DNA of 63,984 nucleotides, the filler included, from Folioceros fuciformis (lineage: Eukaryota): the NCBI GenBank assembly GCA_049999805.1. It is 7 parts of 7 records of this genome, joined end to end, with 100 filler letters (N's around TTAATTAATTAA, not from the genome) between each part and the next. Parts side by side here need not be neighbours in the genome. Positions count along the whole stretch, not along the records: positions 1 to 9,453 come from JBNGIO010004193.1; 6 more parts are not named here. One strand, 5' to 3'. The notes under the pieces are model-generated. The model was given only the letters and a program-made list of their open reading frames with translations, had not been told where the DNA came from and did not search any database. Positions 1,805 to 61,803 of this stretch are shown in pieces (the first letter of the stretch is position 1; each line of letters opens with the position of its first letter). Made by a program: the position numbers and the translations under genes.

Positions 1805-4744
1805 TCAAGGTCGGCCCTTGCAACTGCAACAACCAGCTGTAAATCGATGCACACGGTACCCATCCCTTACAACAATGTCCCTCTGTTCAAGCTTTGACAT
1901 AATCTCCGTGGAACTGTGGCAGTCACTGCACATGCGTAGATTCTTCGTTACAACCAGAGGTGTACCACTTGGAGTGTTCAAGAGGCCAAAAGCTAAAGCT
2001 AGCTTCTCAGCATGCCCACAAAGTATATCCTCCTTTTCCTTCTCACACAGTGGCTTCAACACCAACTTCGTGTGAGGTACGTGGCCACCTTCTTGCTTCA
2101 CCCGTGCATTTGTGCTCTCTGCCTTGATCGCAATATCCTTTCGTTTTTCCCCCACCAGAAATCTGTGTACCTCCTTATTCACCTCAACGCTCGCCACTGC
2201 AGGTTTCTTATTAGCTCCTGCTGCTCTTCTCTGCGTTTCAATCCTGTCTACATCCGTCCACCTACCTGCATCTGCATAGGCATTGGCCATAGTCACATAG
2301 GCAGAAGCCATTTGAGGATCCAGCATAACAATGCTTTCAAAACACCACACAGCCGTCTCCATATCCCCGTAACTTTTGCTGGCATTCAACAATGAAGTTA
2401 AGCCAACTAGATTACTTTGGCCTTCACACAAAAATAGCATCTTCTTTGCCTCATCTAAGTGGCCAGCACGCCCAAGAAGATCAATCATGCAGTTGTAATG
2501 CTCAATAGTAGGTTTGATGTCATACTGTTCAGCCATGGAATCAAAGTGTTTGCGACCCTCATAGACCAGTCCCTCATGACTGCACGCTGCCAGAAGGCAA
2601 GTGAAAGTGGCATCATTAGGCTGAACACTGGCAACTAACATCTCCTCAAAACAAGCTAGTGCCTTGTGACCTTCATCACAAGCACCATACCCAGATATCA
2701 GGGCATTCCATGTCACGACGTCCTTAGTGGCCATGCTGTCAAAAACATGGCGTGCCTCCTCCGGTTTACCACACTTTGCATACATGTCCACCAAGCTTTT
2801 GCCCACCACGTCATCATCCAGCAGTGCTCTTTCGACAATCTGTGAATGCAGTTGTATGCCCTTCTGTAAGGCACCAGTGCTTGCACAGGCCTTCAAAAGG
2901 CAAGCAAAAGTAACATGGTTAGCCAAAAAGAGGCCTGCCTCCTCCATTCGTCCAAACACAACAAGCGCCTCTTGGCCAAGTCCTTGTTGTGCATATCCAG
3001 TAATCAGGGCATTCCATGTCACCACATCCTTCGTGGGCAGGCTGTCAAAAACCTGGCGTGCATCTTCTAGTTCACCACATTTCGCATACATGTCCACCAG
3101 GCAGTTGCCCACCACTACATCTCCCGTCAATCCTCTTTCAACAATTTGAGAGTGCAGCTGCCTGCCCTTCTGTAAGGCACCAGTGCTTGCACAAGCCTTC
3201 AGAAGGCAAGCAAAAGTAACACGGTCCGCCAAAATAAGCCCCGCTTCCTCCATTTGTCCATATACAACAAGCGCCTCTTGGCCGCGTCCTTGCTGTGCAT
3301 ACCCAGCGATCAAAACTGTCCAAGTCACCACATCCTTTGTGGCCAACCTGTCAAAAACCTGGCGTGCATCTTGCAGTTCACCACATTTTGCATACATGTC
3401 CACCAGACAGTTACCCAACACAACGTCATTCAGCAGTCCTTTTTCAACAATCTCCGAGTGCAGCTGCCTGCCCTTTTGTAAGGCGACAGTGCTTGCACAG
3501 GCCTTCAGAAGGCAAGCATAAGTAACATGGTCAGCCAAAATAAGGCCCTCCTGCTCCATCTGTCCATACACAACAAGCGCCTCTTGCCCCAGTCCTTGCT
3601 GGGCATACCCAGCGATTAGCGCTGTCCATGTCACCACATCCTTTGCGGCCATGCTGTCAAAGACCCGATGTGCATCTTTCATTTCGCCACATTTTGCATA
3701 CATGTCCACCAGGCAGTTGCCAACAAACAAATTAGTAGGAACGCCACTCTGCACCACATCGCAGTGCACTTTCCTGCCAGATTCCAAGTCAGCGGCCAAG
3801 CCACACGCTTGAAGGGCAGCTACAAAGACGTAAGCATCTGCCTTCACTCCTGACCCACGCATCTGATAGTACAGTCGAACAGCCTCACTGGGTTTCCCAT
3901 GCTTAACGTATGCAGAGATCATGGAAGACCACATGAAGGCATCCGGTTTCCCAACTCTGGTGAGCATATCCATGGCCTCCTGTAGCCTACCTCCACTTGC
4001 ATACATGCGCAAGATATGGTTCCCCACGAATGCACTCGACTCGTACCCAAGCTTGGCAGCGAGCTCATGAACTCGTCGGCCCGCAACCAAATCCTTCTTA
4101 GCGGTGCATAATTTCAGAACATTGTAGAACAGAGACTGAGCAACGCCAGAACCTGTTTGCGCCAGAAATTCCAGGGCTCCAACGGCTTCACAAAGCTTCC
4201 CCTGCTGACATAACATGCCAACGGTTGCCGCAGTAACGACGCCCATTTGCGATCCTGCACGCCTCCCAGATTCAGGCTTATCCGGAGAGTAGGACTCGGA
4301 AGGAGAGACACCATGGCCCATCTGCTGATCCAAGCAAATGAGCTGCTCATCAACCCAAGCTGGCTTAAACAAGTTGTTTAGCCACAGCACCTTGCCAGAC
4401 CCCTTACGACGGAAGTCAGGAGAACGTGAGCTCGTCTTGTCTCGTCTCTTATCCCACCACATGGTAGGGTCCAGAAAAAATTCCTGCCACAAGTACTCCT
4501 GCTCCTGGCAACGCTCATAGCTGGAAAACCGGTCTGTAGGCACACACTCTCCGGGAAGTGAAAGTGCTGGGCTCCTTACACTTTCGCACCTGGAGGCTTT
4601 GCTTGCCAGGGGTCGACTCCTTACGACGAGGTCCACAGGAGCTCTTCCTTGCATCCACTTACGCACACCAATTTGTTGGATCCCGCCTGAAACCCGATAA
4701 ACAGCAAAGAAAAGGAAAGAAGCTTCAGCCCTCGCTGCGGCCAT
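1805..4744 (-). CDS. PLS-class PPR RNA-editing factor, DYW:KP (GRP) type, with N-terminal OSB-like PDF motif
   Basis: 979-aa intronless ORF, ATG 4744 to TGA 1805. About 18 P/L/S motifs (e.g. VVTWTALIAGYAQQG, VVGNCLVDMYAKCG), P2-L2-S2, E1/E2, then KKPAVASVEV...HAEKLALAFGLL...KNLRMCSDCH...CCSCKGRP. The true N-terminus may include an upstream exon. Confidence 0.95.
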   Translation of the reverse strand: MAAARAEASFLFFAVYRVSGGIQQIGVRKWMQGRAPVDLVVRSRPLASKASRCESVRSPALSLPGECVPTDRFSSYERCQEQEYLWQEFFLDPTMWWDKRRDKTSSRSPDFRRKGSGKVLWLNNLFKPAWVDEQLICLDQQMGHGVSPSESYSPDKPESGRRAGSQMGVVTAATVGMLCQQGKLCEAVGALEFLAQTGSGVAQSLFYNVLKLCTAKKDLVAGRRVHELAAKLGYESSAFVGNHILRMYASGGRLQEAMDMLTRVGKPDAFMWSSMISAYVKHGKPSEAVRLYYQMRGSGVKADAYVFVAALQACGLAADLESGRKVHCDVVQSGVPTNLFVGNCLVDMYAKCGEMKDAHRVFDSMAAKDVVTWTALIAGYAQQGLGQEALVVYGQMEQEGLILADHVTYACLLKACASTVALQKGRQLHSEIVEKGLLNDVVLGNCLVDMYAKCGELQDARQVFDRLATKDVVTWTVLIAGYAQQGRGQEALVVYGQMEEAGLILADRVTFACLLKACASTGALQKGRQLHSQIVERGLTGDVVVGNCLVDMYAKCGELEDARQVFDSLPTKDVVTWNALITGYAQQGLGQEALVVFGRMEEAGLFLANHVTFACLLKACASTGALQKGIQLHSQIVERALLDDDVVGKSLVDMYAKCGKPEEARHVFDSMATKDVVTWNALISGYGACDEGHKALACFEEMLVASVQPNDATFTCLLAACSHEGLVYEGRKHFDSMAEQYDIKPTIEHYNCMIDLLGRAGHLDEAKKMLFLCEGQSNLVGLTSLLNASKSYGDMETAVWCFESIVMLDPQMASAYVTMANAYADAGRWTDVDRIETQRRAAGANKKPAVASVEVNKEVHRFLVGEKRKDIAIKAESTNARVKQEGGHVPHTKLVLKPLCEKEKEDILCGHAEKLALAFGLLNTPSGTPLVVTKNLRMCSDCHSSTEIMSKLEQRDIVVRDGYRVHRFTAGCCSCKGRP

Positions 4745-5534
4745 AGTTCAGGGACCGCTTGATGAGGATGCATGGACAAGCCCGAGCCGCTCACAAACAC
4801 GTCCGCTGCACGTCCAGTAGCCCACAGCCTCCAGAGCAGCCGGGCCAGGGTTGGTGGACTGACTCAGACGCTGGCATGGCAGTGCCTACAACGGTGCTGA
4901 AGAGCGGGCTGTGGAAAATTGCAATGAAACCGGACATGTCCGGTTCGGAACTATGAGCACCTGCATCTACACCTCACCTGGACATTGACACCTGCTCTTG
5001 AACCTGGATTTGCACCGGAGAAAAGGTAGCCCTGCAACCTTCTTCCACGCTCATGGTTGCCTTCGGGCTGCTAAAGTGAGCTGAACATAAAGGAGAGTCT
5101 GCCAAGTTGGACGATTCCGCCGTGCAGGAACAAGTAGCAGCCACACACAGAGAAGGATCCGTGAACAGTCGTGTCCCGTCCCAAGATTTGCCGAACACGA
5201 GCTCGTCCCCCATCCCAGTTGGCAGCGTTGTGCCGCCGCAGGTGATTCGTCCAGGCTCGGCGGCCTGGCGACGGTCTCGCTGGCTTTCCTACAGCCGGGA
5301 CGAGACCCCGATCACACCGAGGGCTCTAACCAGTCCATCGAGTTCAATTTCATATCATTTTTGCGTAAAACACAGTACATTTCAAATAATAAATTTAAAA
5401 TATATCATCAAGAATATGAAATTTTAAAATTAATCACCATATATATATATCTTACACCATTGCCATGTCACCTAATCAGCATTGAAGGAGGCTAATTTTT
5501 CTTTCTTAGTTTTCTTTGTTATGATGCAAGATTA

Positions 5535-5599: not shown

Positions 5600-8500
5600 A
5601 TTGTCACAACAATATTTCTATGATTGAAAAAGAGATGGAAAGTCCCATCTATTCCAAAGATTGGAGGAACAACCCCTAATCTTAGGAACAACCACATTAA
5701 GGCCAAAGGCAAAAAGAGGTACTCTCCCCTGCGAATATCATTTTCAAAAACTATCTACTGCTCCCAAAATGTCATGATGTGGAATAACAAAAGGCCTACC
5801 TACCACCGGTGCCGAAGAAGTCGCTTGACCTGCACTTGTTGCTGTTCTAAAAACTGCATTGGCCAATGCTCGTTGCAAAGCAATAGATACATATTGTCGA
5901 AAGAAGGCCACCACAGAGGAAAGAGGGAGAACACCATTCCTATTGCTCTAATAAACTTTGGCGCACTCCTTGATAAACCTTGAAAAGTCCTTGCCCATAG
6001 CTCCATGAGTCTCAAGAACAAGGGGGATGAAAGTATGCCCGTCTTGCAAGGGAGAATACTTATGGACTTTGGCACTTGCACAACCCTCTGCCGCCCAACT
6101 AGGGGGGTTGATGATGACGTGCTCACAAATCGAATCCCTAGTGAAGAAAAGGTCAGCTCTAAGTAAAACCCCATTGCGCAAAGTATATGGACACTCCCTA
6201 TACGGAAGAAACCCACATTCCCTAACCATTGAGAACATGACATCTCGAACTGCATCATGAGTGGCAATGCGGTGTCTCCCAACGGGACAACGTGCCAAAT
6301 GGGACCCTGTATCGACAATGGGAACCCCATAACTGCATGTAGAGAGAGAAAAAGCCAAGGGGTGGGCCAAACCTAAGCGAAATCTCATCGCGGTGGCGAA
6401 AGTTGCTGGTGTGATTCGAAACGCCTGGATGCAAGGTCGAGCTAAAAGCCAAGAGCCCGCTCCTTTACCTGAACAAGATCGAATACGAGCTCGAGAAGAC
6501 CTAGGGATGGATGAGTCCGAAAGAAGGGCTCTAAGTGCTTGGCCATATTGCTTTTCTAGGAGGGAGGCTTGGAGACCCTTCAACCCTTCCCTAGAAAAGG
6601 AGGTGAAAAGAGGTAGAGCCTCACGAGCCTCCAAAGGTAGAGAATCCCTCGCTTGCCTAAGAGATACCTGTAAAGGGAAAATGCCCTCCTGAACACCTGA
6701 AATAAAACTTTCAAGAACAGGGGAATCTTGTAGCAAAAAACGAGAGGCCAAAATTGGAGCTGAGANNNNNNNNNNNNNNNNNNNNNNNNNNNNNNNNNNN
6801 NNNNNNNNNNNNNNNNNNNNNNNNNNNNNNNNNNNNNNNNNNNNNNNNNNNNNNNNNNNNNNNNNATGATGTTCCCAAGAGCCTACATAACTTGATTGTT
6901 AAACTTCTTGAGACTTGATAAGAAAAATGGAGAAGGCGCAACAGTTCTAGTAAGGTAACCTGGTCGCTGTGCAAAACAAGAAGAAAGGATACCAAACGCA
7001 ATATGAGGATCACTGATTTGAGAGAGGTCCATGATATGAGCCAAATCTTCATCCAATGCTTCATCCACAAACCTATGAACAAAATCAGGAGGTCCCACAG
7101 GCACACCCAAGACTCAAAGTTCCTGTGAGGGGGTGATATTCCCCCCTAAATATTGAAGGGGGGGAGTGATGCTTGAAGGGGACCAAACCCTGCATCCAGA
7201 TAGCTTGACCCGCAACCCCACCTTGAAGAGCTCTGATTAGAAGAAATCAAATGACTATGACCAATCAATTTAACTGTGACTCCTTGCCCAAGAATCTGAG
7301 TGTCATCTGCCACGGAAGGGAAAAGGCATTCCCGAAATGCTAAGGCAGTAGAGGACAACGCACGAAAATGCGCCATTGCAAAAAGAGCACCCCCTAGCGG
7401 ATCCCCTTGCCTTGTGCCTGTTGCTGAATCAAAAATTGAGACCCCCTCAATAGTCGGGCCGTGTTGGTAGTAGAGCTTGGATGGCGAGCCATAGAAGGAG
7501 CGAACAAAAGGGATAAGACTTGCCAATTGACCTCCTGCACTCTTGAGCTTCGAGAAGATGGCGACCCTAGAGACGGTGTTGAAAGCATTCTCAATATCAA
7601 CCTGCAAAGCCACCCAATGAGGATGTAACTCAAGGGTAGCCTGGATGCCGAGAGCGGCAGATTCACACCCACCTGGGGTAGCAGTCCGAAATTGGTGGGG
7701 TGCAAGATGCGCTTGGAAGTACTCCAAAGTTGAATTGCAATACTTCGGCTGATAAGGCGCAAAAATACCTCCCCCACAGCAATAAGGCACACTCCTGAAG
7801 TGGGCTTTTCCAATGCAAGTAGCCTACTAGCCGCCAAAACTTGAGAGATTCGATTGGGAACTTCGCCCTAGCCACAGTAGCTGCTAGTGTATAAAGCTCC
7901 GAAAAACCACTTGAGGGATTCTCAAGAAAAAAATAATCTCGAAAATGGTCATAAACGGTGCCAGACAAACCCCCTGCAGAAAGTCGCAGCGCACAAGAGA
8001 ATGCATGCCCAAAAACAACCCTATCCAAGCAAAAAGGCTCCTCGACCATGTGGTCAAGAAGATCTTGTGGTATAGTGTCATGAGGTTCTGGATGAAGGGC
8101 ACGAAGTGCAGCATTGGTGTCCTTAGTTGCAGATGCAACCGGCTCTGGGCACAATGCTCTAGCAGCCCGAGCATATTCATCATCCCTGCCCAACATGAGA
8201 CACCGCTTGAGGCGTGCTTTAACTGGGTCATGGCACACCTTGTCAACCTTAGCTGACTGCAATTGAGATTTTGCTATTAGTAAATCCTCCTCCTGAAGAG
8301 CTTGCCAATCTTTGAATCGAAAACGGCAAAGTCACCATGACGGCCACCTTCCTATGACTTGACGGACCACCCTTAGAGCGTCGAAGGCACCATCTAGGCA
8401 GGAAAAGGAACAAAATCCAAGCACCCTCATCCCTCGGATCTCGAGCAAGGCGATCCAAGGGAAGACGATAAGCAAGGCAAATATCATCATGTAGGCGCCT

Positions 8501-9552: not shown

Positions 9553-12500
9553 NGGGTTGGAGTGCAAGTCTCTTCCCCGATTCTTCTCCTTCCTCTCCTC
9601 ATAGTGCAGCGCTTGAGGGCCCTCCTTTATCTAGTGACTCTCTTCCTTCTCTTGGCTCTTCTTATTTAGCTGCTTCACCTCCTCGCCATCTCTCTCCCGG
9701 CATTCTGGGCCCTCCTCGTGGTCCTGTTTTACGTTGTTCTTCTCGTTTCACCCAAGGGGTGCCAGCCACCAAGTTTGCATACTTGGACTTTTCTCATGGC
9801 TATGGTGCTTGGGCCCATCCTCCTCAAGGGGGCGAACCAGCATCTATCTCTGAGGCTCTATCCGGGCCCAAAGCTGCTCAGTGGAAGATAGCCACTGATC
9901 AAGAATATGCTTCACTCATCTCTAATAAAACATGGACACTCACAGATCTTCCTCTAGGTAAGAATCTCATCACTTGTAAATGGGTTTACAAGAAAAAATA
10001 CCAAGTGGATAGTACTCTTGCTCGTTATAAGGCCCGGCTTGTGGCTCGTGGTTTTACTCAACAGGAGGGTATTGATTACTCTGATGAGGGTGTATTCAGC
10101 CCTATTGTCAAGTTTATCTCTTTGCGTGTGCTGCTAGGTTTGGCAGCAATCCATCGACTACATGTCTATCAAATGGATGTGCAGACTGCCTTTCTTAATG
10201 GAGTCCTCAAGGAAGAAGCCTTCATGTCTCAACCTAAAGGTTATATCACTCCTGGACAGGAAAAGAAGGTATGTAAATTGCAATGCACAATCTATGGGCT
10301 GAAACAATCGCCTCGAGCGTGGTATGATCGTTTTGATCAGTATATGACTAAGGTCGGCCGCTATAAGACTACAGCTGACACTAATGTCTATGTCCGACAC
10401 TCAGTTTTAGGGCTGGTGATCATAGCACTTTATGTCGATGATCTAATCATCTTTTCTAAGAGTCTTAAGGTTCTCAAGCATGCTAAGTCACAACTGAGCT
10501 CAGAATTCAAAATGACTAATAATGGTATTCTAGAGTATTGTCTTGGTGTGCAAGTTAAATATGATGCTGAAAATCAAACCATCACCATCCATCAAGCAAA
10601 GTATGTCGATGATGTTCTCACCACGTTCCACATGAAGAATTGCCATTCGATTGATACTCCTTTACAAGCTGGTGTGAAGTTGACCAAGGCTATGTCACCT
10701 CAAGACGATGCTGCAAGGTGTAGGGTTATTAAAGCCCAATGTGCTTAGACTAATGTGTTTAGTCTAATATTAGTGTCTAGTTAAGTATCATTAGTTTAGA
10801 TTAGCTTAAGCTAATATGTAGGAAGCTTCTTGCGCAGCTTCCTGTGCGCTTCTTGTGAAGCTTCCTAGAGAGCTCTTTTAGAGGGTATAAATACCCCTTG
10901 AGCACCCTTGCATATAGAGACCTTTTGTGAGAGTGTGACCTCTCTTTTTCCTCTCCTCCTTGCCCTCCTCCTCTCCTCTCCTTCACCATGCTAGCGTGAA
11001 CGGGATCGATAGGGTAGGAAAGATGAGTAATGAATGAATTCTTTAAAAATTTGTGAGTGTGTGAGGTCTTTATGGCCGTGTCCCATGAACCTATACGACG
11101 GTTGACGGGTAATCGTTCTTTAGGGCACGGTTCGTGCCTGTTCGTATTCTATATGTATATTTAACTAAGGACTACGCTTAGCGCCGGGAAGCGGGATATA
11201 TTAGGGCAACCTTATTTCGTTACATGCTCCTCTAGCGATCCTTCAAGTGGTATCAAAGCCTGGTTGTGGAGCTTGGATTGTGGAGCAAGGATGATAGGCT
11301 CCGGATGCTGCGGACAAGGTGCACAAGTGGGCTTCGGAGTGAGCACGCTGCTGGGTGCAAGGGTCTCAGCGCAGAGGGGGAGCCGAAAGCGAGGACCCAG
11401 ACACGAACACAGACGGCGCAAGGGCACCAACCCCGCGCGCGGGATGAGCAGGCCCCGGCCGCGGGGTGAGGACAGGCCTCCAGCCCCCCGGGCTGTGGGG
11501 CGCGGACAGACCTCCAGCCCCCCAGGCTACAGGGCTCAGCCAGAGCCTGGCTAGCCCGCGGGCCTCCCGGCCGCCGGGCCACCTCGCAGCGGGCAGGCCT
11601 TGGCTAGCGTGGGGGCGCTAATCCCCCCGGGCGCTAGGCCGCCCGGCTAGGGCTAGGGCACTGCCGGCTAGGGTTAGGGCGCCGGCGAGGCGCCACTTGG
11701 GCGCCAACAGGACGCCACCCAAGTGCCAGCGGGGCACAAGCGAGGAGCGAACCAAACGCGCCGACAAGGTGAGGACTTGACCGACGGGAGCCGAAAAGTG
11801 AACGAATCGCGGTCATCGAGAGCACAGACGCCGAGAGCAAGGGTGTGCGCGCCAAACTAACCCTGACCGTGGAAGTCAAGATCCCGATCAGACAACGAGA
11901 GACATTCCAGTTGTGAGCGACCAAGGCTCAAGTTGTGGACATCCGATTCGGAACACGTTGGCTCTGGGTTTTTTTTTTTTTTTATTACATTCCGACTGTT
12001 TTCTAACTAGCCTTTAGCTTCATTTGCATCGATTTTGAAACATGGCGTCCTCAGAAAACGTCATGTTCAATATCGAGAAGTTAGATGGTACTAACTTCCC
12101 GTTCTGGAAAGAACAAGTGTATAATGTTCTAGTATAAAAGAAGCAGATCAAGCCCATCAAGCTGCTAGGAGTGAAACCCATTAGCATGACTCAGGATGAG
12201 TGGCAGGATCTAGATGAGCTTGCTAGGTCTACCATCATGCTAACATTGTCGAAGTCGGTCTACTTTAACGTGAAAGGCAAGACCACAAGTTTTCGAGTTG
12301 TGGCAGAAGTCGTGTGACCTGTACGAGAAGCAAAGTGCAGCTTCTCAGGTGTACTGGTTGAAACAGCTGGTGGACTTGAAGATGAAGGAAGGGACGAGGA
12401 TGTTCGATCATCTGAACGAGTTCAATACCATTTTCAGCCAGCTCTCATCTTAAGTTATCTTGTTCCCAGATTCCGTGAGAGCTATGTTTCTGTTGGTCAC

Positions 12501-15500
12501 ATTACCAGAGAGCTGGGACACCTTTCGTACAACTCTGAGTAATTCCGCTCCTGCCAGTGGTCTTACCATTGTAAATATAGAAGGTAGCCTGTTAACAGAG
12601 GAGGTGAACAAGAAGAATATGGAACCTTCGAAAGGTTCCAATGCCCTCATGGTCAGAGGAAGGTCCACTTCAAAGGGGAAGTACAAGGAGCGAAGTCGTT
12701 CCCGTAGTAAGTCTCGTAGTCGTAACAATGTTGAGTGCTACCATTGTCACAAGAAGGGTCACATCAAAAGGGACTGCGAGAAGTTCAAGAAGGACAAAGG
12801 AAAGGAGAAGAAGCAGAGTGACAACAAGGCAAGTCCGAGTGTGAAGTCTAACGAGGTGAATTCTGTTGATGATGGAAATGTTCTTATCTCTTCTTCCTTC
12901 GATTCTGCACAACTGATAGCCGTGGAGAGTCACTTATTCTCTAATTGGATAATTGACTCTGGAGCATCTTTCCATGTTACTCCGCATAGGGAGTGGTTTA
13001 GCACATATGATGCTACTAGGAAAGGATGTGTTCGGCTTGGAAATAACTACGCATGTGAGATTGCAGGCGTTGGTGATGTGCAGCTGAAGTTCGACAATGG
13101 ATCTTCATTCGTACTGAAGGATGTTAGGCATGTTCCAAAGTTGACCAAAAGCATGATTAGCGCAGGGCAGTTGGATGATGCTGGCTACCACTGTTGGTTT
13201 GGAGATCGTTCTTGGAAGGGTTCTCCAAAGGTTCTCTTGTGTTAGCTCGTGGATTGAAGTGTGGCACTTTGTACTCACTTCAGGTAACCACTATTCAGGA
13301 TCATGTGATTTGTGTAACGGAACAGCCAAGTGTTTCCTTGTGGCATAGTCAGTTAGGACATATGTCTCAAAAGGGAATGAAGATCCTATCTCGTTTTGGT
13401 TACATCCCTACTTTTGACTTCTCTGATTTCTCCGTGTGTGAGCACTGTTTGTATGGGAAACAGACGAAGTTACCACATGGAGCAAGAGGTAAACACAAAA
13501 GTAAACCTCTTGAGTTGGTTCACAGTGACGTTTGTGGACCTATGCCCACTGTATCGTTAGGCGGCGCACCCTGTTTTGTCACTTTCATTGATGACTTCTC
13601 GCGCAAGGTGTGGGTTTATCCCTTGAGGAAAAAGGATGATGTTCTGATAGTGTTTCAGAAATTTGTCACACTTGTGGAGAATCAGTCTGGCCTCCGGCTG
13701 AAGTGTCTAAGGACAGACAATGGGGGAGAGTATGTCTCGAAGGCTTTCCAGTCATTCTGTGATTCCAAGGAAATCAAGAGAGAACTGACTGCGCCGTATA
13801 TTCCTCCCCAGAATGGTGTGGCCAAACGGATGAACAGAACCATCCATGAGAGGATGCGTAGTTTGTTGTCAAACTCTGGATTGCCTAACGGATTTTGGGC
13901 AGAAGCAGTGGTTACTATGGTGCATCTTATTAACAGATCTCCGAATAGAACCATGGATGATCAGGTTCCAGAGGAGATGTGGTTTGGAAAGAAGCCATCG
14001 TACAAGCATCTACGAGTGTTTGGCTGTGAGGCATACTACCATATTCTGAAGGAGTTTCGGGACAAGTTGGCACCCAAGTCCAAGAAATGTATTTTTCTTG
14101 GCTATGGTGAATCTGGTGAGATGGGATACCGTCTATGGGATCCAGAAGCCAAGAGGATGGTTTGCAGCAATGACGTGTTCTTCAATGAGACGAAGATGCA
14201 CAAGAAGCCTACTCCAACTGTGGAAGTGCGACGGGTGGTCTTTCAAGAAGATGGACTTGACTGTCCCGTGCAGGTTGAACGTCGTTCTGTGCAGGTTGAA
14301 CGTCGTTCTGTGCAGGAACAAGTTCCTCCACTTGTAGAAGAGGAGAGAGTGCAACAGCTCGGGTCGATGCGCAAGTGCTTCATAGGTCAGGAAGGATCTC
14401 ACATCCTCCTGCCAGGTATGTTGCATCTCTTGATTATGTCATGCTGATGGATTGTGGGGAGCCCTCTTGTTACCAAGAGGCCATGTCAGTGACTGACAAG
14501 GACAAGTGGGAGAAGGCAATGTAGTCGCAGATGGATTCGCTCCATAAGAACCAAACTTGGGATTTGGTTTGGTTGCCTAAGGGCAAGAAGGCGTTGCCAT
14601 GCAAATGGGTGTATAAGATGAAGGACATACTCCATTATGGCAAACCCAAGTACGAGGCACGATTGGTTGCTAAGGGTTTTAAGCAACAGCAAGGTATTGA
14701 CTTTGATGAGATTTTCTCGCCAGTTGTCAAAATAACCACCTTGCGATGTGTCCTTGGTCTGGTTGTGAGGCACGACATGGAACTTATCCACATGGATGTA
14801 AAGTTGGCATTTCTGCATGGTGATCTCCAGGACGAGGTATACATGCAGCAACCAGAGGGTTCATTGAGAAGGGCAAAGAGAGTTTGGTGTGCAAGTTAAA
14901 GAAGAGCCTTTATGGTTTGAAGCAGGCACCCAGGGAGTGGTATTTCAAATTCCACTCATTTATGCTTTCTCAAGGCTACAAACGTAGCGATGAGGATCAT
15001 TGCCTCTATACGAAGCAAGCTAAGGATGGAAGCTTGCTCATTCTGGTCCTCTATGTGGATGATATGCTAATTGCTGGGACTAACAGTAATGAGATTTTAG
15101 CGTTGAAGTCAAAGTTAATTGGTCGCTTTGACATGACAAACTTGGGAGAGGCAAGCCATATTCTTGGCATGTGTATTCATCGAGACAGACAGAAGCATTT
15201 GCTTTACTTGTCTCAAACTGAATACATTAACAAGGTGCTTCAACGTTTCAATATGGAGAAGGGGAAGGTATTGAGTACTCCGTTGCCTCCATATGTGAAA
15301 CTTTCGAGAAAAGATTGCCCAAGCTCTACGGAGGACAAAGCTGAAATGGAGAAGGTTCCATACTCATCAGCTATGGGGAGTTTGATGTATGCAATGATTG
15401 CTACGCGCCCTAACATTGCGTTTGCAGTGGGAGTGGTTAGCAGGTTTATGTCAAACCTTGGCAGGAAGCATTGGGAGGCAGTGAAAGGAGTTATGAGGTA

Positions 15501-32741: not shown

Positions 32742-34033
32742 GCGTGTCAATACCCATTTAATGGGGTTTGCTTGAAAGATTCTGGACAGCAGATGGCTTG
32801 GTCATCCTAGCCCCAGACCTGAACTTGGACCGCTCCAGCTGATCACTATTTTTAGGCTCACGGGACCCTCTTTGAAGTCTTTCAGACTTGCGAATGGCCA
32901 GTGCACCTTTCCAATCATAGCCTCCTGCGAGCCTTCCAGTTTCACCCACCGCCGCCTCTGGAGTCTCTATCCTGTCCTTTGTCCAAGGTGGGTCCAAAGT
33001 CCACCTCCACTCGGGGATAAGCGGCATGGATGGCCCATAGGCATGTTTTAGACGGACTTCAGCATAATATTGCCCCTCCTTCTGGTAGACACCACTGAAG
33101 AACTCAACCTCCTTACCGTCTTTACTCATTAGGACCCCTCCGGCCGACAAGAAGGTAAAAATCCTCTCCTATCCTTTATGCAGCTGGTGTAATGTAATGA
33201 TAAGTGGCAGCTGTTCCCCCCCCGCTTCCTATCATAACCAGAAAGGAGCAAAAGTCTTGAATCTTCCTCGTAACCATTAGGTTGACTGAATAGTGTCTGC
33301 TTTTCCTCCTTGATATTCCTTTCGACTCCCTGAATTCCTGGCCACTAAGCCCGCTCGATTCCTCCTGCCCAGGGTGAGGAAGCCCGTATTGTACCTCCTT
33401 GACCTATACAAGATCCCTTTCCCCGGACCTTAGCGGAGAGGTACATCCTTCATCTCCAGAAAAAATAGCTTGTACCTCATGCCAGTCGGATTCAGTATCC
33501 TCTTCATCCTTAGCACAAGGAGTGGAGAAAAAGTCATCCTCAGACACATATATTGCATTCTCTCTCATGATGGGACTGTCAAAGGCAAGCATGGATTTAT
33601 CCAAACACGATGCACCAGATTCATCCTCTCTGGAACCCCCTCTCACTTCACTCCTGTTGTGGGGTTAAAATATGGTATCCAGGGGTACCGCGAGGTCCAC
33701 ACAAGCCCTCTATGTTGTTGTAGCTCTGGGATTCGATCCCAAGGGAATGATTTGTGTTAAACTACATAGGTTAGCTTCTAAAGTCAATTAGCACTTAAAG
33801 CTCGACTGACCCACGCACACACGTCCAGTGCTCGGACCTTACCAAGCCCCCTTACTTCCCCACCGGACGACCCCTCAACCACCCGGTCGCCCCAAGGGCT
33901 ACCTTCCCCTAGACTACCCTTGGTTGCCCACCGNNNNNNNNNNNNNNNNNNNNNNNNNNNNNNNNNNNNNNNNNNNNTTAATTAATTAANNNNNNNNNNN
34001 NNNNNNNNNNNNNNNNNNNNNNNNNNNNNNNNN

Positions 34034-37000
34034 CTTGCACGCCTCAGTCGCTGCAACATACTCGGCCTCTGTGGTAGATAGCGTTATGCACGATTGCAAA
34101 TGAGATCGCCATGAGACTGCCCCTCCAATGCACATGAAGACATAACCTGATGTGGACCTCCTTTTGTCCATATCCCCTGCATAATCAGCATCCGTATATC
34201 CCACTACAGATGCATCTTCACTACCAAAACATAAGCACAAAGCTTTTGTACCATTCAAATACCTCATAACTCCTTTCACTGCCTCCCAATGCTTCCTGCC
34301 AGGGTTTGACATGAACCTGCTAACCACTCCCACTGCAAAAGCAATGTCAGGACGTGTAGCAATCATTGCATACATCAAACTCCCTACAGCTGATGAGTAT
34401 GGAGCCTTCTCCATTTCAGCTTTATCCTTCGTAGAACTTGGGCAATCCTTGCTCGAAAGTTTCACATATGGAGGCAACGGAGTACTTAAGACCTTCCCCT
34501 TCTCCATATTGAAACGTTGAAGCACCTTGTTAATGTATTCTGTCTGAGACAAGTACATCAAACGCTTCTGTCTGTCTCGACGAATACGCATGCCAAGAAT
34601 ATGGCTTGCCTCCCCCAAGTCTGTCATGTCAAAGCGACCATTCAACTTTGACTGCAACGCTGAAATCTCATCACTGTTAGTCCCAGCAATTAGCATATCA
34701 TCCACATAGAGGACTAGAATGAGCAAGCTTCCATCCTTAGCTTGCTTCTTATAGAGGCAATGATCCATATCGCTACGCTTGTAGCCTTGAGAAAGCATAA
34801 ATGAGTGGAACTTGAAATACCACTCCCTGGGTGCTTGCTTCAAACCATAAAGGCTCTTCTTTAACTTGCACACCAGTTCTTTAACTTGCACACCAGACTC
34901 TCTTTGCCCTTCTCAATGAAACCCTCTGGTTGCTGCATGTATACCTCTTCCTGGAGATCACCATGCAGAAATGCCGACTTCACATCCATCTGGACAAGTT
35001 CCATGTCGTTCCTCGCAACCAGACCAAGAACACATCTCAAGGTAGTCATTTTGACAACTGGTGAGAAAATCTCATCAAAGTCAATACCTTGCTGTTGCTT
35101 AAAACCTTTAGCAACCAATCGTGCCTTGTACTTGGGTTTGCCATAATGGGGTATGTCCTTCATCTTATACACCCATTTGCATGGCAACACCTTCTTGCCC
35201 TTAGGCAACCGAACCAACTCCCAAGTTTGGTTCTTATGAAGCGAATCCATCTGCGACTGCATCGCCTTCTCCCACTTGTTTTTGTCAGTCACTGACATGG
35301 CCTCTTGGTAACAAGAGGGCTCCCCACAATCCGTCAGCATGACATAATCCAGAGATGCAACATACCTGTCAGGAGGACGTGAGATCCTTCTTGACCTACG
35401 AAGCACTGGCGCCTAAACCGGAGCTGGTTGCACTCTCTCCTCGTCTACAAGTGGAGGAACTTGTTCCTGCACATCACGATGTTCAGCCTGCGCGGGACGG
35501 TCAAGTCCATCTTCTTGGAAGACCACCCGTCGCACCTCCACAGTTGGAGTAGGCTTCTTGTGCATCTTGGTCTCATTGAAGAACACATCATTGCTGCGAA
35601 CCATCCTCTTGGCTTCTGGATCCCACAGACGGTATCCCATCTCACCAGATTCACCATAGCCAAGAAAAATACATTTTCTTGACTTAGGAGCCAACTTGTT
35701 GCGAAACTCCATCGGAACATGGTAGTATGCCTCGCAGCCAAACACTCGTAGATGTTTGTATGACGGCTTCTTTCCAGACCACATCTCCTCTGGAACCTAT
35801 TCATCCACAGCCCTATTAGGAGATCTGTTAATAAGATGCACTGCCGTAACCACCGCTTCTGCCCAAAATCCGTTAGGCAATCCAGAGTTTGACAACAAAC
35901 TACGTGTCCTCTCCTGGATGGTCCTGTTCATCCGCTCAGCCACACCATTCTGGAGAGGAGTATACGGTGCAGTCAATTCTCTCTTGATTCCCTTGGAATC
36001 ACAGAATGACTGGAAAGCCTTCGAGACATACTCTCCCCCATTGTCTGTCCTTAGACACTTTAGCCGGAGGCCAGACTGATTCTCCACAAGGGTGACGAAT
36101 TTCTGAAACACTGTCAGAACATCATCCTTTTTCCTCAAAGGATAAACCCACACCTTGCGTGAGAAGTCATCAATGAAAGTGACAAAATAAGATGCACCGC
36201 CTAACGACACAGTGGGCATAGGTCCACAAATGTCACTGTGAACCAATTCAAGAGGTTTACTTTTGTCTTTACCTCTTGCTCCATGTGGTGACTTCGTCTG
36301 TTTTCCATACAAACAGTGCTCACACACGGAGAAATCGGAGAAGTCAAGAGCAGGGACGTAACCAAAACGAGATAAGATCTTCATTCCTTTTTGAGACATA
36401 TGTCCTAACCGACTATGCCACAAGGAAACACTTGGCTGTTCTGCTACACAAATCACATGATCCTTGACAGTGGTTACCTGAAGTGAGTACAAAGTGCCAC
36501 ACTTCGATCCACGAGCTATCACAAGAGAACCTTTGGAGATCTTCCAAGAACGATCTCCAAACCAACAGTGGTAGCCAGCGTCATCCNNNNNNNNNNNNNN
36601 NNNNNNNNNNNNNNNNNNNNNNNNNNNNNNNNNNNNNNNNNNNNNNNNNNNNNNNNNNNNNNNNNNNNNNNNNNNNNNNNNNNNNNTCCAATTAGAGAAT
36701 AAGTGACTCTCCATGGCTGTCAGTTGTGCAGAACCAAAAGAAGAAGAGATAAGAACATCTTCATCGTCAACAGAGTTCACCTCATCACACTCGATACTCG
36801 AATCTGGCTTGTTGTCGCTCTACATCTTCTCCTTGCCTTTTTCCTTCTTGAACTTCTCGCAGTCCCTTCTGATGTGACCCTTCTTGTGACAATGGTAACA
36901 CTCAACATTGTTACGACTACGAGATTTGCTACAGGAAGAACTTCGCTCCTTGTACTTCCCCTTTGAAGTGGACCTTCCTCTCACCATGAGGGCATTAGAA

Positions 37001-45184: not shown

Positions 45185-45477
45185 AGCCTGTTCATGGGAG
45201 GAAAAAGAGGGGGTAGCCAACAATGGGGCACTAGGAAATTTTACTTACTTGAGGGCAGCACCGCAAGACACGGTGGAAACAACACACGAGGTCGCTGGCT
45301 TTTGCCTTCGCGTTGCTTTGGAGGGCGCTCTGCAGCGTGTTTCTGTGTTTGGTTGGCGTGATCGGCGGGTTTGGTGTACGAAATGATAGGGATGGCGTTG
45401 GGAGAGCTGCCCATGCTTCCCCCTTTCCTGCCTGTTGTTCGTGGCTGCCGCAGGTGCAGATGTAAACGCAGTTGCAG
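45185..45477. promoter_or_regulatory. Putative bidirectional promoter / 5'UTR region
   Basis: Divergent start codons of the CRTAC1-like gene (45184) and APC7 (45478) are under 300 bp apart. Confidence 0.45.
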
Positions 45478-49633: not shown

Positions 49634-50573
49634 GGTTCCTCGCTCAGCTAGCACCGCCGACGCTGGAACAAACGCGCAGGCTTCACCCGGATCCTACTCC
49701 CCTGCCTTCAGTCCAGCCCCGAGATATCCTGCACAAGCGGACTTCAACGACTACACAATCCACCTGCGGACTTCAACGACTACACAATCCACCACTCCAT
49801 ACCTCTCCAACTCTGGACGAGTCGTCGCGCCGCAAGACTTACTGGAAATCCCTCCTCCAACTTGCCGCCGCCTGCCGGCAAACCACACCACACAACAAAA
49901 TCAACAATCCACCAATTCACTCCCGAGATCACAAAATCCCTCAACCAAAATCCACACGATCAGCCTCGCCCTCGCCAGCCACACCCTCTAATACTGAGCG
50001 CGCAGGCGCAGGCCCACACAAAGGCCCCGAATTCTGATACTGCGCGATCGTAGCAAACACCGCAGCCACAGCACATGCGCAGCACGTTGGCGCGGGCGAC
50101 TTACGCGAGAACACACCAGACAGAGGGGGGAACTGAGGAGCCTGGCTCACCGGAACATGGACGAGCCAAATGCCGAGACCGGGGAGCCCGCCGACACGCA
50201 GCCAACCAGACGAAGAGCGCAGAGCCTAGAGCAAGCTCAGCCCCCACCCCGGGGATGCAGACTATAAAAGGGGGCCAGAGGGACGAAGGAGGGCACGACG
50301 GTCCTCGTTCAAAACCCGTTCCGTCCACCGTACCCNNNNNNNNNNNNNNNNNNNNNNNNNNNNNNNNNNNNNNNNNNNNTTAATTAATTAANNNNNNNNN
50401 NNNNNNNNNNNNNNNNNNNNNNNNNNNNNNNNNNNGTGACACTGACATACCCAGATACCCGTTCCTATGTTCAAACCATTATTTTATTATTTATTATTAT
50501 TTTATTATTATTTAATCATTTAATATTATTATTTAATTGTATATATCTTTAATTAATATTAAACTAATCACCC

Positions 50574-58953: not shown

Positions 58954-61641
58954 ATGGCCACAGTATGGCAATCGGATCCGTTGTCTACCCAACAAATTGG
59001 TGTATTTACAGGGATTCTACGAAGTGCTCCTGCTAACCTCAGATCAGGGAGTGGAACCCTGGCAAGCAAAGCCTCCACGAGCAGCATTGGAAAAAGCCCA
59101 GAACTTCCAATCGCGAAAAAGTGTGACGGTTTTTCAAGAGATGGTCGTTGCAAGGAGCAGCAACACTTATGGCGACAATTTTTTCTGGACCCTACCATGT
59201 GGTGGGATAACAGAAGAGAGAAGAGGAGCTCCCGTTTGCCTGACTTCCGACGTAAGGGGTCTGGCGAGGTGCTGTGGTTAAACAGCATGTGTAAGCCAGC
59301 TTGGGTTGATGAGCAGCTGGTTTCCTGGGATATGCAGATGCGCCATGGTTCTTCTCTTTCCGATTACAGCTCTCCCGACAAGCCTATACCTGGAAGACGT
59401 GCAGGATCGCAACTGACCGTCGTAACGGCCACTACCGTGAGCACGTTCTGTCAGCAGGGGAAGCTTTCTGAGGCCGTTGGAGCACTGGAATCTCTGGCTC
59501 ACACAGACTCTGCCATTTCGCAGTCTGTCTTGTACACTGTGCTAAAACTGTGTACAGTTAAGAAGGATTTGGTTGTGGGGCGTCGAGTTCATGTCCTCGT
59601 TGCCAAACTTGGGTACGAGTCGAGTTCATTCTTGGCGAACCATATCTTGCGCATGTACGCATGTGTAGGGCAGCTGCAGGAGGCCATGGATGTGTTCACC
59701 AGGGTTGGCAAACCGAACGTGTTCATGTGGTTTTCAATAATTTCTGCATATGCCAAGCTCGGGAAGCCCCAGGAGGCCATACAACTGTACCATGAGATGC
59801 GTTGTTCAGGAGTAAAGGCGGATGCGCACGTCTTTGTGGCTACCCTTCAAGCCTGCGCACTTGCCGCTGACCTGGAATCTGGCAGGAAAGTGCACCGTGA
59901 TGTTGTACACAGTGGCATTCCTACTAACTTGTTTGTGGGCAACTGCCTGGTGGACATGTATGCAAAATGTGGTGACGTGAATTATGCACGCGAGGTTTTT
60001 GACAGCATGGCCACCAAGGATGTGGTGACATGGAATACCCTGATAGCTGGGTATGCGCAGCAAGGACTGGGCCAAGAGGCGCTCGTTGTGTATTCACAGA
60101 TGGAGGAGGCGGGCCTCGTTTTGGCCGACCGCGTTACTTTTGCTTGCCTTCTGAAGGCGTGTGGAATCACTGGTGCCTTGCAGAAAGGCAGGCAGCTGCA
60201 TTCACTGATCGTGGAAAGAGGACTGCTAGATAACATTGTGGTGGGCACCTGTCTGGTGGACATGTATGCGAAATGTGGTGAACTGGAAGATGCACGCCAG
60301 GTTTTCCACAACATGAGCTCAAAAAATGTGGTGACATGGACATCGCTGATTGCTGGGTATGCAAGATGGGGTGACATGGAAGATGCCCGCAAGATTTTTG
60401 ACAGCATGGAAACGAAAAATGTGGTGACATGGACAGCGCTCATTGCTGGGTATGCACAACGAGGGCTCGGCCAAGAGGCGCTTGTGGTGTATGGACAAAT
60501 GGAGGAGGCGGGCCTTGTTTTGGCTGACCATGTTACGTTTGCTTGCCTTCTGAAAGCCTGTGGAAGCAGCGGTGCCGTACAGAAGGGAATGCAACTGCAC
60601 TCGCAGATTGTGAAAAGAGGGCTGCTGAATAACGTTGTGGTGGGCAACTGCCTCGTGGACATGTATGCAAAATGTGGTGAACTGAAAGATGCACGCCAGG
60701 TTTTTGAAAGCATGGCCACAAAGGATGTGGTGACGTGGACAGCGCTGATTACTGGCTATGGTGTTTGTGATGAGGGCCAGAAGGCCCTTGCTTGTTTTGA
60801 GGAGATGTTAGCTGCCGGTGTTCAGCCTAACGAGGCTACTTTCACTTCCCTTATAGCAGCATGCAGTCATGAGGGATTAGTTCATGAGGGTCGCAAACAC
60901 TTCGATTCCATGGCTGAACAGCATGGCATCAAACCTACCATGGAGCATTACACGTGCATGATTGATCTTCTCGGGCGTGCTGGCCATTTAGACGAGGCAC
61001 AGAAGATGCTATCATCATGTGAGGGCCAAAGTAATGTTGTGGGCTTGACGTCTTTGTTGAATGCCTGCAAAAGTCATGGGGACGTGGAGAGAGCTGTGTG
61101 GTGTTTTGAAAGCATTGTCAGGATGGACCCTCAAATGGCGTCAGCCTATGTGCTCATGGCTAATGCCTACGCAGATGCTGGTATGTGGAGCGATGTAGAC
61201 AGGATTGAAATACAGAGAAGGGCAGCAGGAGCTAATAAGAAACCTGCAGTGGCGACAATTGAGGTGGAGAATCAAGTACATACATTTTTGGTGGGAGAAA
61301 GGAGAGAGGATCTTGCGCGCAAGATAGAGAGCACGAATGCACGTGTGAAGCAGGAAGGAGGGCATGCACCTCACACACAGTTGGTGTTGAAGCCACTCGG
61401 TGAGAAGGAGAAGGAAGATATGCTTTGTGGCCATGCCGAGAAGCTAGCTTTGGCATTTGGTCTGTTGAACACTCCAAGTGGGACACCTCTGGTGGTAACG
61501 AAGAATCTACGCATGTGCAGTGACTGCCACAGTTCCACGGAAATAATGTCAAGGCTTGAACATAGGGACATTGTTGTAAGAGATGGGTACCGTGTTCATC
61601 GATTTACAGCTGGTTGTTGCAGTTGCAAGGGTCGACCGTGA
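58954..61641 (+). CDS. PLS-class PPR RNA-editing factor, DYW:KP (GRP) type, with N-terminal OSB-like PDF motif; paralog of 1805-4744
   Basis: 895-aa intronless ORF with about 16 PPR motifs including one SS motif, E1/E2, then KKPAVATIEV...HAEKLALAFGLL...CSDCH...CCSCKGRP. Confidence 0.95.
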   Translation: MATVWQSDPLSTQQIGVFTGILRSAPANLRSGSGTLASKASTSSIGKSPELPIAKKCDGFSRDGRCKEQQHLWRQFFLDPTMWWDNRREKRSSRLPDFRRKGSGEVLWLNSMCKPAWVDEQLVSWDMQMRHGSSLSDYSSPDKPIPGRRAGSQLTVVTATTVSTFCQQGKLSEAVGALESLAHTDSAISQSVLYTVLKLCTVKKDLVVGRRVHVLVAKLGYESSSFLANHILRMYACVGQLQEAMDVFTRVGKPNVFMWFSIISAYAKLGKPQEAIQLYHEMRCSGVKADAHVFVATLQACALAADLESGRKVHRDVVHSGIPTNLFVGNCLVDMYAKCGDVNYAREVFDSMATKDVVTWNTLIAGYAQQGLGQEALVVYSQMEEAGLVLADRVTFACLLKACGITGALQKGRQLHSLIVERGLLDNIVVGTCLVDMYAKCGELEDARQVFHNMSSKNVVTWTSLIAGYARWGDMEDARKIFDSMETKNVVTWTALIAGYAQRGLGQEALVVYGQMEEAGLVLADHVTFACLLKACGSSGAVQKGMQLHSQIVKRGLLNNVVVGNCLVDMYAKCGELKDARQVFESMATKDVVTWTALITGYGVCDEGQKALACFEEMLAAGVQPNEATFTSLIAACSHEGLVHEGRKHFDSMAEQHGIKPTMEHYTCMIDLLGRAGHLDEAQKMLSSCEGQSNVVGLTSLLNACKSHGDVERAVWCFESIVRMDPQMASAYVLMANAYADAGMWSDVDRIEIQRRAAGANKKPAVATIEVENQVHTFLVGERREDLARKIESTNARVKQEGGHAPHTQLVLKPLGEKEKEDMLCGHAEKLALAFGLLNTPSGTPLVVTKNLRMCSDCHSSTEIMSRLEHRDIVVRDGYRVHRFTAGCCSCKGRP

Positions 61642-61803
61642 GAAGAACGAGTAGTCGTTGTCCGTGGTGACGGGTGAATTTTCACGTAGATTTCAGTTTA
61701 CATGTTTTTGATAAGATCTAAGCATATTTCACTATCAGATATCTAAGCAAAAGATTGTCATTCATTTCCTTTGATCTTTTTTGGTAGCATAGAAGTCAGA
61801 ATT

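Follow-up and report, generated by a model that had tools for sequence, protein, structure and literature searches.

Predicted OSB-type PDF domains precede the PPR tracts of two paralogous DYW:KP editing factors encoded in Folioceros fuciformis

The usual account of a PPR editing factor comprises the targeting peptide, the PPR tract and the E/DYW domains. MORF/RIP and ORRM proteins are trans-acting editing cofactors, proposed to raise the RNA binding or the editing efficiency of PLS PPR proteins. To our knowledge, the PDF domain is otherwise known solely as the single-stranded DNA (ssDNA)-binding motif of the OSB proteins of plant organelles. The ssDNA binding by this motif is documented for Arabidopsis OSB proteins only, through secondary citations (PMC6963530, PMC4166229, PMC6451138). 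In AtOSB1, the motif is described as sufficient for ssDNA binding (PMC6963530, PMC4166229); recombinant AtOSB1 and AtOSB2 reportedly prefer ssDNA over dsDNA or RNA (PMC4166229), and AtOSB2 is reported to be a tetramer, with the part that mediates tetramerization left unstated in that account (PMC6963530).

Among the editing factors, the relevant group is the GRP subtype of DYW:KP proteins, which includes candidate U-to-C factors of hornworts as well as the designer proteins KP2 and KP3. Apart from the PLS array, the E motif and the DYW-family domain, these proteins are characterized by KP in place of the PG box, an HAE active site, a CxDCH motif and a terminal GRP (PMC9478123). According to the available text of this source, U-to-C activity has been shown solely for designer KP proteins in E. 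coli, where GRP-type proteins without a PDF attain ~22–26% editing; both the proteins described there and the designer versions take their definition from the P2-L2-S2-E-DYW end, and an N-terminal PDF is not mentioned in that text. Given that designer GRP-type proteins edit without a PDF, this domain is not required for catalysis. An extra domain that binds single-stranded nucleic acids is located N-terminal to the PPR tract in maize PPR4, although this domain belongs to the RRM rather than the PDF family, and the protein works in splicing as a member of the P type, unlike the PLS editing factors. The extra PPR-associated domains listed in the available part of the same review are RRM, LAGLIDADG, SMR, NYN, CBS and SAP, with PDF absent (PMC9459714).

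The window, i.e., the entire stretch of 63,984 bases that was analysed, contains two intact single-exon paralogous genes, the products of which are PLS-PPR/E/DYW proteins belonging to the GRP subtype of the DYW:KP class. Copy 1 (positions 1805..4744, minus strand) is a 979-aa ORF that encompasses a presequence, a PDF domain, a linker, a PLS PPR array, an E motif and a DYW:KP (GRP) domain; copy 2 (58954..61641, plus strand) is an 895-aa ORF with the same domain order. The peptides quoted for the two copies in the preliminary description of this DNA are found in the sequence letter for letter, inside these long ORFs. In both proteins, PF01535, PF13041, related PPR families, PF20431 (E) and PF14432 (DYW) exceed the curated Pfam cut-offs, and the PPR array is followed by the E motif and then by the DYW-family deaminase domain, the arrangement of a PLS-class editing factor with a DYW domain. 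PF14432 matches residues 887–977 of copy 1 (E = 1.3e-32) and 803–893 of copy 2 (E = 8.3e-33); including the stop codons, the deaminase-like DYW:KP domains occupy 1805..2086 (minus strand) and 61360..61641 (plus strand), respectively. Both copies show the features by which the GRP subtype is recognized in the text available to us (PMC9478123): KP replaces the PG box in KKPAVA (residue 846 in copy 1, 762 in copy 2), HAE replaces HSE in HAEKLA (911 and 827), and the C-terminus, ...CSCKGRP, ends in the triplet GRP; in addition, both contain CSDCH (939 and 855). These assignments bear out the earlier proposal that the PDF motif is fused to a DYW:KP PPR protein. Two GGRP relatives, P0295 and P0304, show no PDF.

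The reading frame runs from the start codon to the PPR array with zero in-frame stops. Contigs of run X1 (the kind of run is a guess) match without error over 3997–4365, 4660–5006 and 4977–5288, and no X1 joint spans the motif. The X1 cover continues upstream of the ATG of copy 1 at similar depth and hence cannot count as a sign of transcription.

The PDF motif itself consists of 51 residues, is rich in W and PDF, and in both copies follows a fast-evolving presequence and precedes the PPR array. A six-frame scan of the window detected exactly two such motifs, with cores at 4340..4492 in copy 1 (minus strand, residues 85–135) and 59167..59319 in copy 2 (plus strand, residues 72–122). The interval originally assigned to the motif of copy 1, 4340–4500, covers the core but overshoots it by 8 bases at one end and is not in frame as a translation unit. 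A Pfam search with the N-terminal 148–149 residues yielded 0 families at E ≤ 10, indicating that Pfam has no PDF model. A hidden Markov model (HMM) built solely from OSB sequences (126 PDF instances from 74 proteins of OSB architecture) aligned with the window motifs over model positions 1–50, with scores of 63.1 bits for copy 1 and 69.5 bits for copy 2; among 1000 shuffled N-termini, 833 gave any match at all, with the best score at 6.4 bits. In the reverse direction, a profile constructed from the two window motifs was compared with 1.84 billion representatives and retrieved 599 matches with E ≤ 1e-3, of which 154 had E ≤ 1e-10. One of the matches, P0037, is named ‘protein OSB1, mitochondrial-like’ (E = 5.6e-22), and its OB-like N-terminal region is common to 75 of the best 150 matches; at least 18 among the 120 matches listed carry the names OSB1, OSB2 or OSB3. 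Full-length P0002 was kept out of this profile because its weight would turn the search into a PPR search. A word-index search with the 67-aa motif gave 5 candidates and a single match (P0002), and was too insensitive to reach the OSB proteins.

The reciprocal profile similarity between the window motifs and the OSB motifs is highly significant, and a motif of ~50 residues with conserved W, F, P, WWD.R, K, PDF.hK, LW and P.WV positions is common to both. On these sequence grounds, the window motif is a genuine homologue of the OSB PDF motif, as had been suggested from the peptides, and we consider both this identity and the domain architecture nearly certain. The window genes themselves can be ruled out as OSB genes: they are nuclear and encode an N-terminal presequence, as is the case for OSB proteins, but the products lack an OB/SSB-like domain (Pfam detects solely PPR/TPR-type, E and DYW families in both proteins, with no PF00436, whereas several OSB matches carry this domain), and the motif is not C-terminal (residues 85–135 of 979 and 72–122 of 895). 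Instead of following an OB-like domain, as in OSB proteins, the PDF precedes PPR repeats, and the remaining part of the polypeptide is that of an RNA-editing factor. Furthermore, the PPR-linked PDFs differ from those of OSB proteins: the spacer that separates LWL from P.WV is longer, and the first Pro is preceded by Asp where OSB proteins have Asn.

The claim that the motif is better conserved than its N-terminal surroundings holds. The two copies are identical at 41 of the 51 positions of the motif, compared with 28 of 71 aligned positions of the presequence and 25 of 40 of the linker, and the respective omega values are 0.31 for the motif, 1.12 for the presequence (residues 1–84) and 0.60 for the linker (copy 1 residues 136–175), with 0.25 for the first PPRs. 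The PDF motif is under purifying selection, and since selection maintains it, its loss together with the presequence is unlikely. The proximity of the motif to the start codon (just 71–84 residues) and the existence of many related PPR proteins without a PDF might be taken to suggest a functionless relic, either the leftover of a past gene fusion or a part of the cleaved targeting peptide. Such a relic would hardly combine an omega of 0.31 with a presequence at 1.12, 37–57% identity to the PPR-linked PDFs of ferns, lycophytes and moss, 2–4 copies in lycophyte PPR proteins and a confidently predicted fold next to disordered residues 1–59. This interpretation is already disfavoured, and we regard it as very improbable.

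The structural models point in the same direction. AlphaFold2 predicts the PDF domain of copy 2 (59134..59349, plus strand, residues 61–132) to adopt a fold with a helix, two or three short strands and another helix, with pLDDT of 93.2 and pTM of 0.75 for the isolated domain. In context, the blocks within residues 61–130 reach pLDDT of 89–96, whereas residues 1–59 and 133–149 remain below 50, with 44–46 in the linker. Thus, the PDF is predicted to be an independently folding helix/strand/helix module of ~70 residues, with a disordered linker of ~17–25 residues leading to the repeats, and preceded by a presequence that is predicted to be disordered as well (copy 2 residues 1–59). The limits of the folded domain in copy 1 (4310..4525, minus strand, residues 74–145) are carried over from the copy 2 model through a 13-residue alignment offset. 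Residues 1–73 of copy 1 (4526..4744, minus strand) then form the presequence, presumably an organellar targeting peptide, and the linker that leads from the PDF domain to the first PPR helix maps to 4232..4309 (minus strand), as judged by the alignment and by the disorder of its equivalent in copy 2.

Searches for a solved relative of this fold yielded no match: the best E-value in a Foldseek comparison with the PDB was 5.8, and VIA-align over 48,161 chains reached a best Z of 2.8. In the ESM Atlas, the best score, 0.81, was for a phage gp49-like cluster and is below the useful range. A sequence search of the PDB with the motif profile retrieved CP29 chains only (E = 0.18–1.4), which we attribute to chance. 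For a 60-residue model, such an outcome is not proof of a new fold.

A small, autonomous and confidently predicted domain on a flexible linker could also serve protein-protein contacts or regulation, by oligomerizing, by binding OSB proteins or other components of the nucleoid or editosome, or by packing against the PPR or DYW part of its own chain, and the reported tetramer of AtOSB2, for which the mediating part is left unstated in the account available, would be compatible with such a function (PMC6963530). Nevertheless, nucleic acid binding is the sole function reported for the motif, the aromatic and basic residues that are invariant in it are of the kind usually seen to stack on bases, and none of the present results points to a partner, which makes a role of this kind improbable.

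The fusion of PDF with PPR is not limited to the two window genes. PPR proteins account for 13 of the best 150 profile matches, from Selaginella, Sphagnum, Adiantum, Ceratopteris, Pteridium and Diphasiastrum, and among the 120 matches listed, 57 contain PPR Pfam domains, 15 of these together with DYW. In a separate listing that included 69 PPR proteins, all PDFs are N-terminal to the repeats in 68; in the exception, P0185, two copies are N-terminal and another two are found at 636–736. The number of PDF copies per fusion protein varies from 1 to 4. In a quick-search tree of 83 motif instances (53 columns), the PPR-linked PDFs cluster, such that 4 changes are needed compared with 17.3 in shuffles, with 0 of 500 shuffles as low; only 3 branches are starred, and accordingly, the tree is not decisive with regard to a single origin of the fusion. 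Judging from these architectures, the window genes are members of a large set of PDF-PPR fusions that extends over hornwort-type organisms, Sphagnum, lycophytes and ferns. This set is apparently undescribed: in agreement with the preliminary description, we found no link between PDF and PPR in the searchable library. In one relevant study (PMC13393729), the part available to us indicates that solely proteins with both PDF and OB-like domains were retained, a filter through which PDF-PPR proteins would have dropped out.

The C-termini across this set are of the DYW:KP, DYW:PG, E or DYW-less type. Among the matches listed, canonical DYW:PG proteins carry the PDF, namely 15 Diphasiastrum proteins that end with GDYW and Sphagnum proteins ending with RDYW or RDSW. 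Many PPR proteins of the E type or without a DYW do so too; the fusions outside DYW:KP come from Diphasiastrum, Selaginella, ferns and Sphagnum. Conversely, the PDF is present in only 1 of the 13 KP-like (HAE) relatives listed, although some of the other 12 may be incomplete ORF calls; this scarcity among the KP-like relatives speaks against a helper role. The notion of a specific PDF-PPR-DYW:KP family tied to reverse editing is therefore not supported, and the U-to-C chemistry is left unexplained by the PDF, given that the fusion also occurs outside DYW:KP. The same distribution bears on the proposal that the PDF, by virtue of its reputation as an ssDNA binder, brings the DYW:KP domain to single-stranded organellar DNA as the substrate. 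This is extremely improbable, given that the PPR tract is an RNA reader and the fusion is equally common on DYW-less PPR proteins, which are unable to deaminate or aminate.

PPR tracts bind RNA with the N-terminus toward the 5′ side of the transcript. We hypothesize that the PDF most likely binds single-stranded nucleic acid in a sequence-independent manner, as a tethered aid to the PPR tract. The invariant Trp/Phe and Arg/Lys residues would mediate the binding, and, because the N-terminus of the tract faces the 5′ side, the module would touch the RNA immediately 5′ of the stretch covered by the PPRs, add affinity and help to hold the site single-stranded. Under this scenario, the PDF would be an in-cis helper for editing in general, not for the U-to-C chemistry. 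By analogy, the N-terminal RRM of PPR4 may be considered a functional counterpart of such a helper, and the PDF could play in cis the auxiliary role of MORF/RIP and ORRM proteins, which are separate polypeptides with unrelated folds. As a whole, this explanation, comprising the PDF identity, the architecture and the role in RNA binding, has a probability of roughly 0.5 in our assessment; the RNA-helper mechanism itself is plausible but tentative.

The main alternative is that the PDF keeps the activity of OSB proteins and anchors the editing factor on ssDNA within the nucleoid, at the non-template strand of transcription bubbles, at R-loops, or at replication or recombination intermediates, so that the PPR tract would meet nascent RNA and editing would be co-transcriptional. 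The entire OSB consensus is kept in the window motif, the linker predicted to be disordered suits tethering, and in the available accounts the PDF suffices for ssDNA binding in AtOSB1 and OSB1/2 favour ssDNA over RNA (PMC6963530, PMC4166229). The latter preference, reported for both AtOSB1 and AtOSB2, runs against RNA binding and favours a DNA anchor (PMC4166229). However, the systematic differences of the PPR-linked PDFs (the longer spacer before P.WV, Asp for Asn, and the clustering in the tree) could mean a changed ligand, and the placement of 1–4 copies directly ahead of an RNA-binding tract fits an extension of the RNA-binding surface equally well. We consider the DNA anchor possible but doubtful.

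A broader proposal can be made, which we rate as rather unlikely: PDF-PPR proteins would be a lineage-wide solution of non-seed plants, in which an editing factor with its own single-strand-binding helper loads on the displaced DNA strand or the nascent transcript at organellar transcription or R-loop sites, coupling both C-to-U and U-to-C editing to transcription. If this is true, the PDF, a small fold without a match, would be a general binder of single-stranded DNA and RNA, not an OSB-specific DNA motif.

With a folded and conserved domain of OSB origin on PLS PPR proteins that number dozens to hundreds, the plant editing machinery gains a new module, and the PDF motif is seen in a context other than genome maintenance. 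From the engineering standpoint, the efficiency of designer KP editors is low, and adding such a natural helper to them might be worth trying. The PDF also provides a testable handle on the question of how thousands of sites are reached by hornwort, lycophyte and fern editing factors.

Both genes, copy 1 (1805–4744, minus strand, 979 aa) and copy 2 (58954–61641, plus strand, 895 aa), are long, uninterrupted open reading frames. They are paralogues with 61–67% identity in long BLASTP alignments. The encoded proteins contain PPR repeats, an E motif and a DYW deaminase family domain, all scoring above the curated Pfam cut-offs. At the position of the PG box of canonical proteins both have KKPAVA, followed by HAEKLA, CSDCH and the C-terminal triplet GRP, which bears out the assignment to the DYW:KP class in the preliminary description. 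In the available text of PMC9478123, the combination of KKPAVA, HAE and terminal GRP is the GRP variant of DYW:KP reported in hornworts, and designer GRP proteins perform U-to-C editing in E. coli.

The window is plant nuclear DNA, in which the two copies lie 54 kb apart and in opposite orientation amid Ty1/copia-type fragments (ORFs for reverse transcriptase, RVT_2, and integrase, rve and gag_pre-integrase, at 9759–10748, 13194–14447, 33986–34891 and 35797–36780, on both strands); there is a further putative LINE-like reverse transcriptase region at ~6–8.9 kb. The paralogues can be aligned for only ~170 bases upstream of the ATG (4745–4915, minus strand, and 58783–58953, plus strand) and for ~35 bases past the stop codon (1770–1804, minus, and 61642–61676, plus), and diverge beyond. 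The duplicated unit is roughly transcript-sized, which is compatible with a retroposition-type dispersed duplication of the kind proposed for PPR expansions in the accessible portion of PMC13386178. Long ORFs run antisense to the PPR arrays (2727–3521, plus strand, in copy 1; 59982–60719, minus strand, in copy 2), with repetitive translations rich in Ser, Thr and Pro; rather than being genes, they look like a side effect of the repeats. Elsewhere the window contains a TPR-repeat ORF (45472–47316, plus strand, 614 aa) and a single-exon ammonium transporter gene (48092–49654, minus strand, 520 aa; PF00909, E 6.8e-126); no Pfam family matches a 450-aa ORF antisense to the latter (48299–49651), which is probably spurious. 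Assembly gaps show up as stretches of N (X in the translated sequence) at ~6800–6900 and ~61950, the second of these ~300 bases downstream of copy 2.

The two peptides previously proposed to be OSB-type PDF motifs were found letter for letter, as residues 85–135 of copy 1 (4340–4492, minus strand) and 72–122 of copy 2 (59167–59319, plus strand). Pfam includes no model for the PDF motif, so homology was tested directly. When the two window motifs were combined into a profile of 60 positions and 1.84 billion representative proteins were searched with it in HMMER, 599 matches had E<=1e-3, of which 154 reached E<=1e-10; among the matches listed, most are proteins of 250–530 residues with one to several motifs towards the C-terminus, for example the Populus protein P0037, named ‘protein OSB1, mitochondrial-like’ (E 5.6e-22). 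The OB-like N-terminal region of P0037 is common to 75 of the 150 best matches (jackhmmer among the matches), 13 have PPR repeats, and the remaining 62, with neither, are fragments or multi-PDF arrays. Reciprocally, an HMM built exclusively from 126 motif instances in 74 proteins of OSB architecture matched the window proteins over its full length (positions 1–50) with 63.1 and 69.5 bits, against a maximum of 6.4 bits for 1000 shuffled N-termini. When PPR-linked motifs served as the profile, at least 18 of the best 120 matches were named OSB1, OSB2 or OSB3, and several of the OSB-named proteins contain Pfam SSB. The window motif is therefore an established homologue of the OSB PDF motif, as had been proposed. 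The PPR-linked motifs show small differences from those of OSBs, including the spacer before P.WV, and cluster non-randomly, in two groups, in a poorly resolved tree of 83 instances. Unlike the OSB family, the window proteins lack an OB/SSB-like domain and have the motif at the N-terminus, so that they do not qualify as OSB proteins.

The motif was also said to be better conserved than its N-terminal surroundings, and in the Nei-Gojobori comparison of copy 1 with copy 2 this holds: across the 51 codons of the motif (41 of 51 residues identical) omega is 0.31, versus 1.12 for the presequence (71 aligned codons), with 0.25 for the first PPR repeats and 0.60 for the linker. That the PDF is a functionless relic is highly improbable. 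Given the continuous ORF, no splicing is needed to connect motif and repeats. AlphaFold2, given 16 aligned PPR-linked motifs, confidently predicts a small fold (helix 2–9, strands 14–16 and 29–31, helix 48–59) with mean pLDDT 93.2 and pTM 0.75. In the context of copy 2 residues 1–340, residues 1–59 are predicted to be disordered (pLDDT 31–41), 61–132 are confident (89–96), 133–149 are again predicted to be disordered, and the PPR helices become confident from ~159. No solved structural relative was identified by Foldseek, where the best match had E 5.8, or by an exhaustive comparison in VIA-align, where the best Z was 2.8; for a 60-residue model this is no proof of a new fold. Together, the substitution patterns and the predicted models show a conserved, selected and apparently autonomously folding PDF domain on a flexible linker directly N-terminal to the PPR tract, which reads RNA.

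The fusion is far more widespread than the preliminary description assumed, and the PDF-PPR-DYW:KP architecture is one of several in which the PDF occurs. The 13 PPR proteins among the best 150 representatives all have an N-terminal PDF; their named sources are Selaginella, Sphagnum compactum (terminus RDYW), Adiantum, Ceratopteris, Pteridium and Diphasiastrum. The PPR-linked profile yielded 455 matches at E<=1e-5 among 6264 candidates, and among the best 120 of these, 57 contain PPR Pfam domains, 54 of them from Diphasiastrum complanatum. A DYW domain is present in 15 of the 57. These all terminate in GDYW and, wherever the landmarks were located by pattern, have HSE and a PG box, and therefore belong to the canonical C-to-U class. 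Another set of 109 PPR relatives of copy 2 contains 18 PDF carriers, including two that end in RDSW (one named from Sphagnum jensenii). Only one of 13 KP-like (HAE) relatives, P0368, with the terminus DRH, is a carrier; two GGRP relatives show no PDF, although ORFs called from short contigs may be incomplete N-terminally. Counting P0002 and P0097, both ending in GGRP, five KP-class carriers were seen. With 15 canonical carriers and one in 13 KP-like relatives, the suggested special link to U-to-C editing is not upheld; DNA editing is the least probable reading of all. Judged from these proteins, the fusion is a peculiarity neither of DYW:KP nor of the two window genes.

The 69 PPR proteins examined have one to four PDFs each, and in 68 of them every PDF precedes the repeats; the exception, P0185, has two N-terminal PDFs and two more at 636–736. 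In the proteins with two to four copies (P0005, 1371 aa; P0178–P0183; others from Diphasiastrum), the PDFs are in tandem at the N-terminus, save the internal pair of P0185. In the matches listed, no PDF-bearing PPR protein has a seed-plant name, and the seed-plant-named PPR relatives (Cryptomeria, Taxus) are not among the carriers; this is weak evidence of absence from seed plants because only the best matches were covered. In four sequencing runs, 10–99 distinct contigs per run (>=88% likeness) cover the motif positions, a pile-up comparable to that on PPR positions and far above the presequence, which hints at many motif-bearing paralogues in related organisms.

Both hornwort-type DYW:KP subtypes, DRH (P0368, 828 aa) and GRP (P0097 and P0002), include PDF carriers, though not every member seen has the motif. 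In P0097, Arg-Asp-Phe replaces Pro-Asp-Phe and one Trp of the WW pair is missing, an indication that some copies are under relaxed constraint. Arrays of 8–13 PDFs without PPRs occur in P0003 (Kingdonia), P0004, P0007, P0010 and P0017. Matches with other annotations, such as P0056 (Coptis), which combines PDFs with a kinesin motor domain, and P0048 (Striga), named ICR-like, may be gene-model fusions.

PPR tracts lie on RNA with the N-terminus towards the 5' end. The PDF module would bind single-stranded nucleic acid, with no sequence preference, beside the PPR footprint. Within the best explanation, we tentatively favor (probability about 0.4) an in-cis helper that contacts the transcript 5' to the site, because the fusion invariably faces the 5' side of the RNA, is equally common with and without a catalytic domain, and the PDF has multiplied in lycophytes. 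The PDF accounts for ssDNA binding in OSBs, according to the available parts of PMC6963530, PMC6451138 and PMC4166229, and the preference of OSB1/2 for ssDNA over dsDNA or RNA (PMC4166229, in part) speaks for the main rival, a tether to single-stranded nucleoid DNA resulting in co-transcriptional editing, which we consider rather unlikely. A protein-interaction module is more doubtful still.

Full-text literature searches returned no relevant paper linking the PDF motif to pentatricopeptide or PPR proteins, and, among the papers listed, nothing relevant, judged mostly by title and abstract, on OSB, PPR, editing and ssDNA together. The accessible sections of two PPR reviews (PMC9459714, PMC11897456) do not mention a PDF, the former giving RRM, LAGLIDADG, SMR, NYN, CBS and SAP as additional PPR-associated domains, and neither OSB nor PDF occurs in those of a 2026 study (PMC13386178) that surveyed domain fusions in editing factors. 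A 2026 OSB family study (PMC13393729), from its available text, required both a PDF and an OB-like domain in every protein retained, so that PDF-PPR proteins would drop out. In the literature covered, the architecture appears to be new, and with it the PLS PPR editing factors gain a new type of accessory domain, the PDF.
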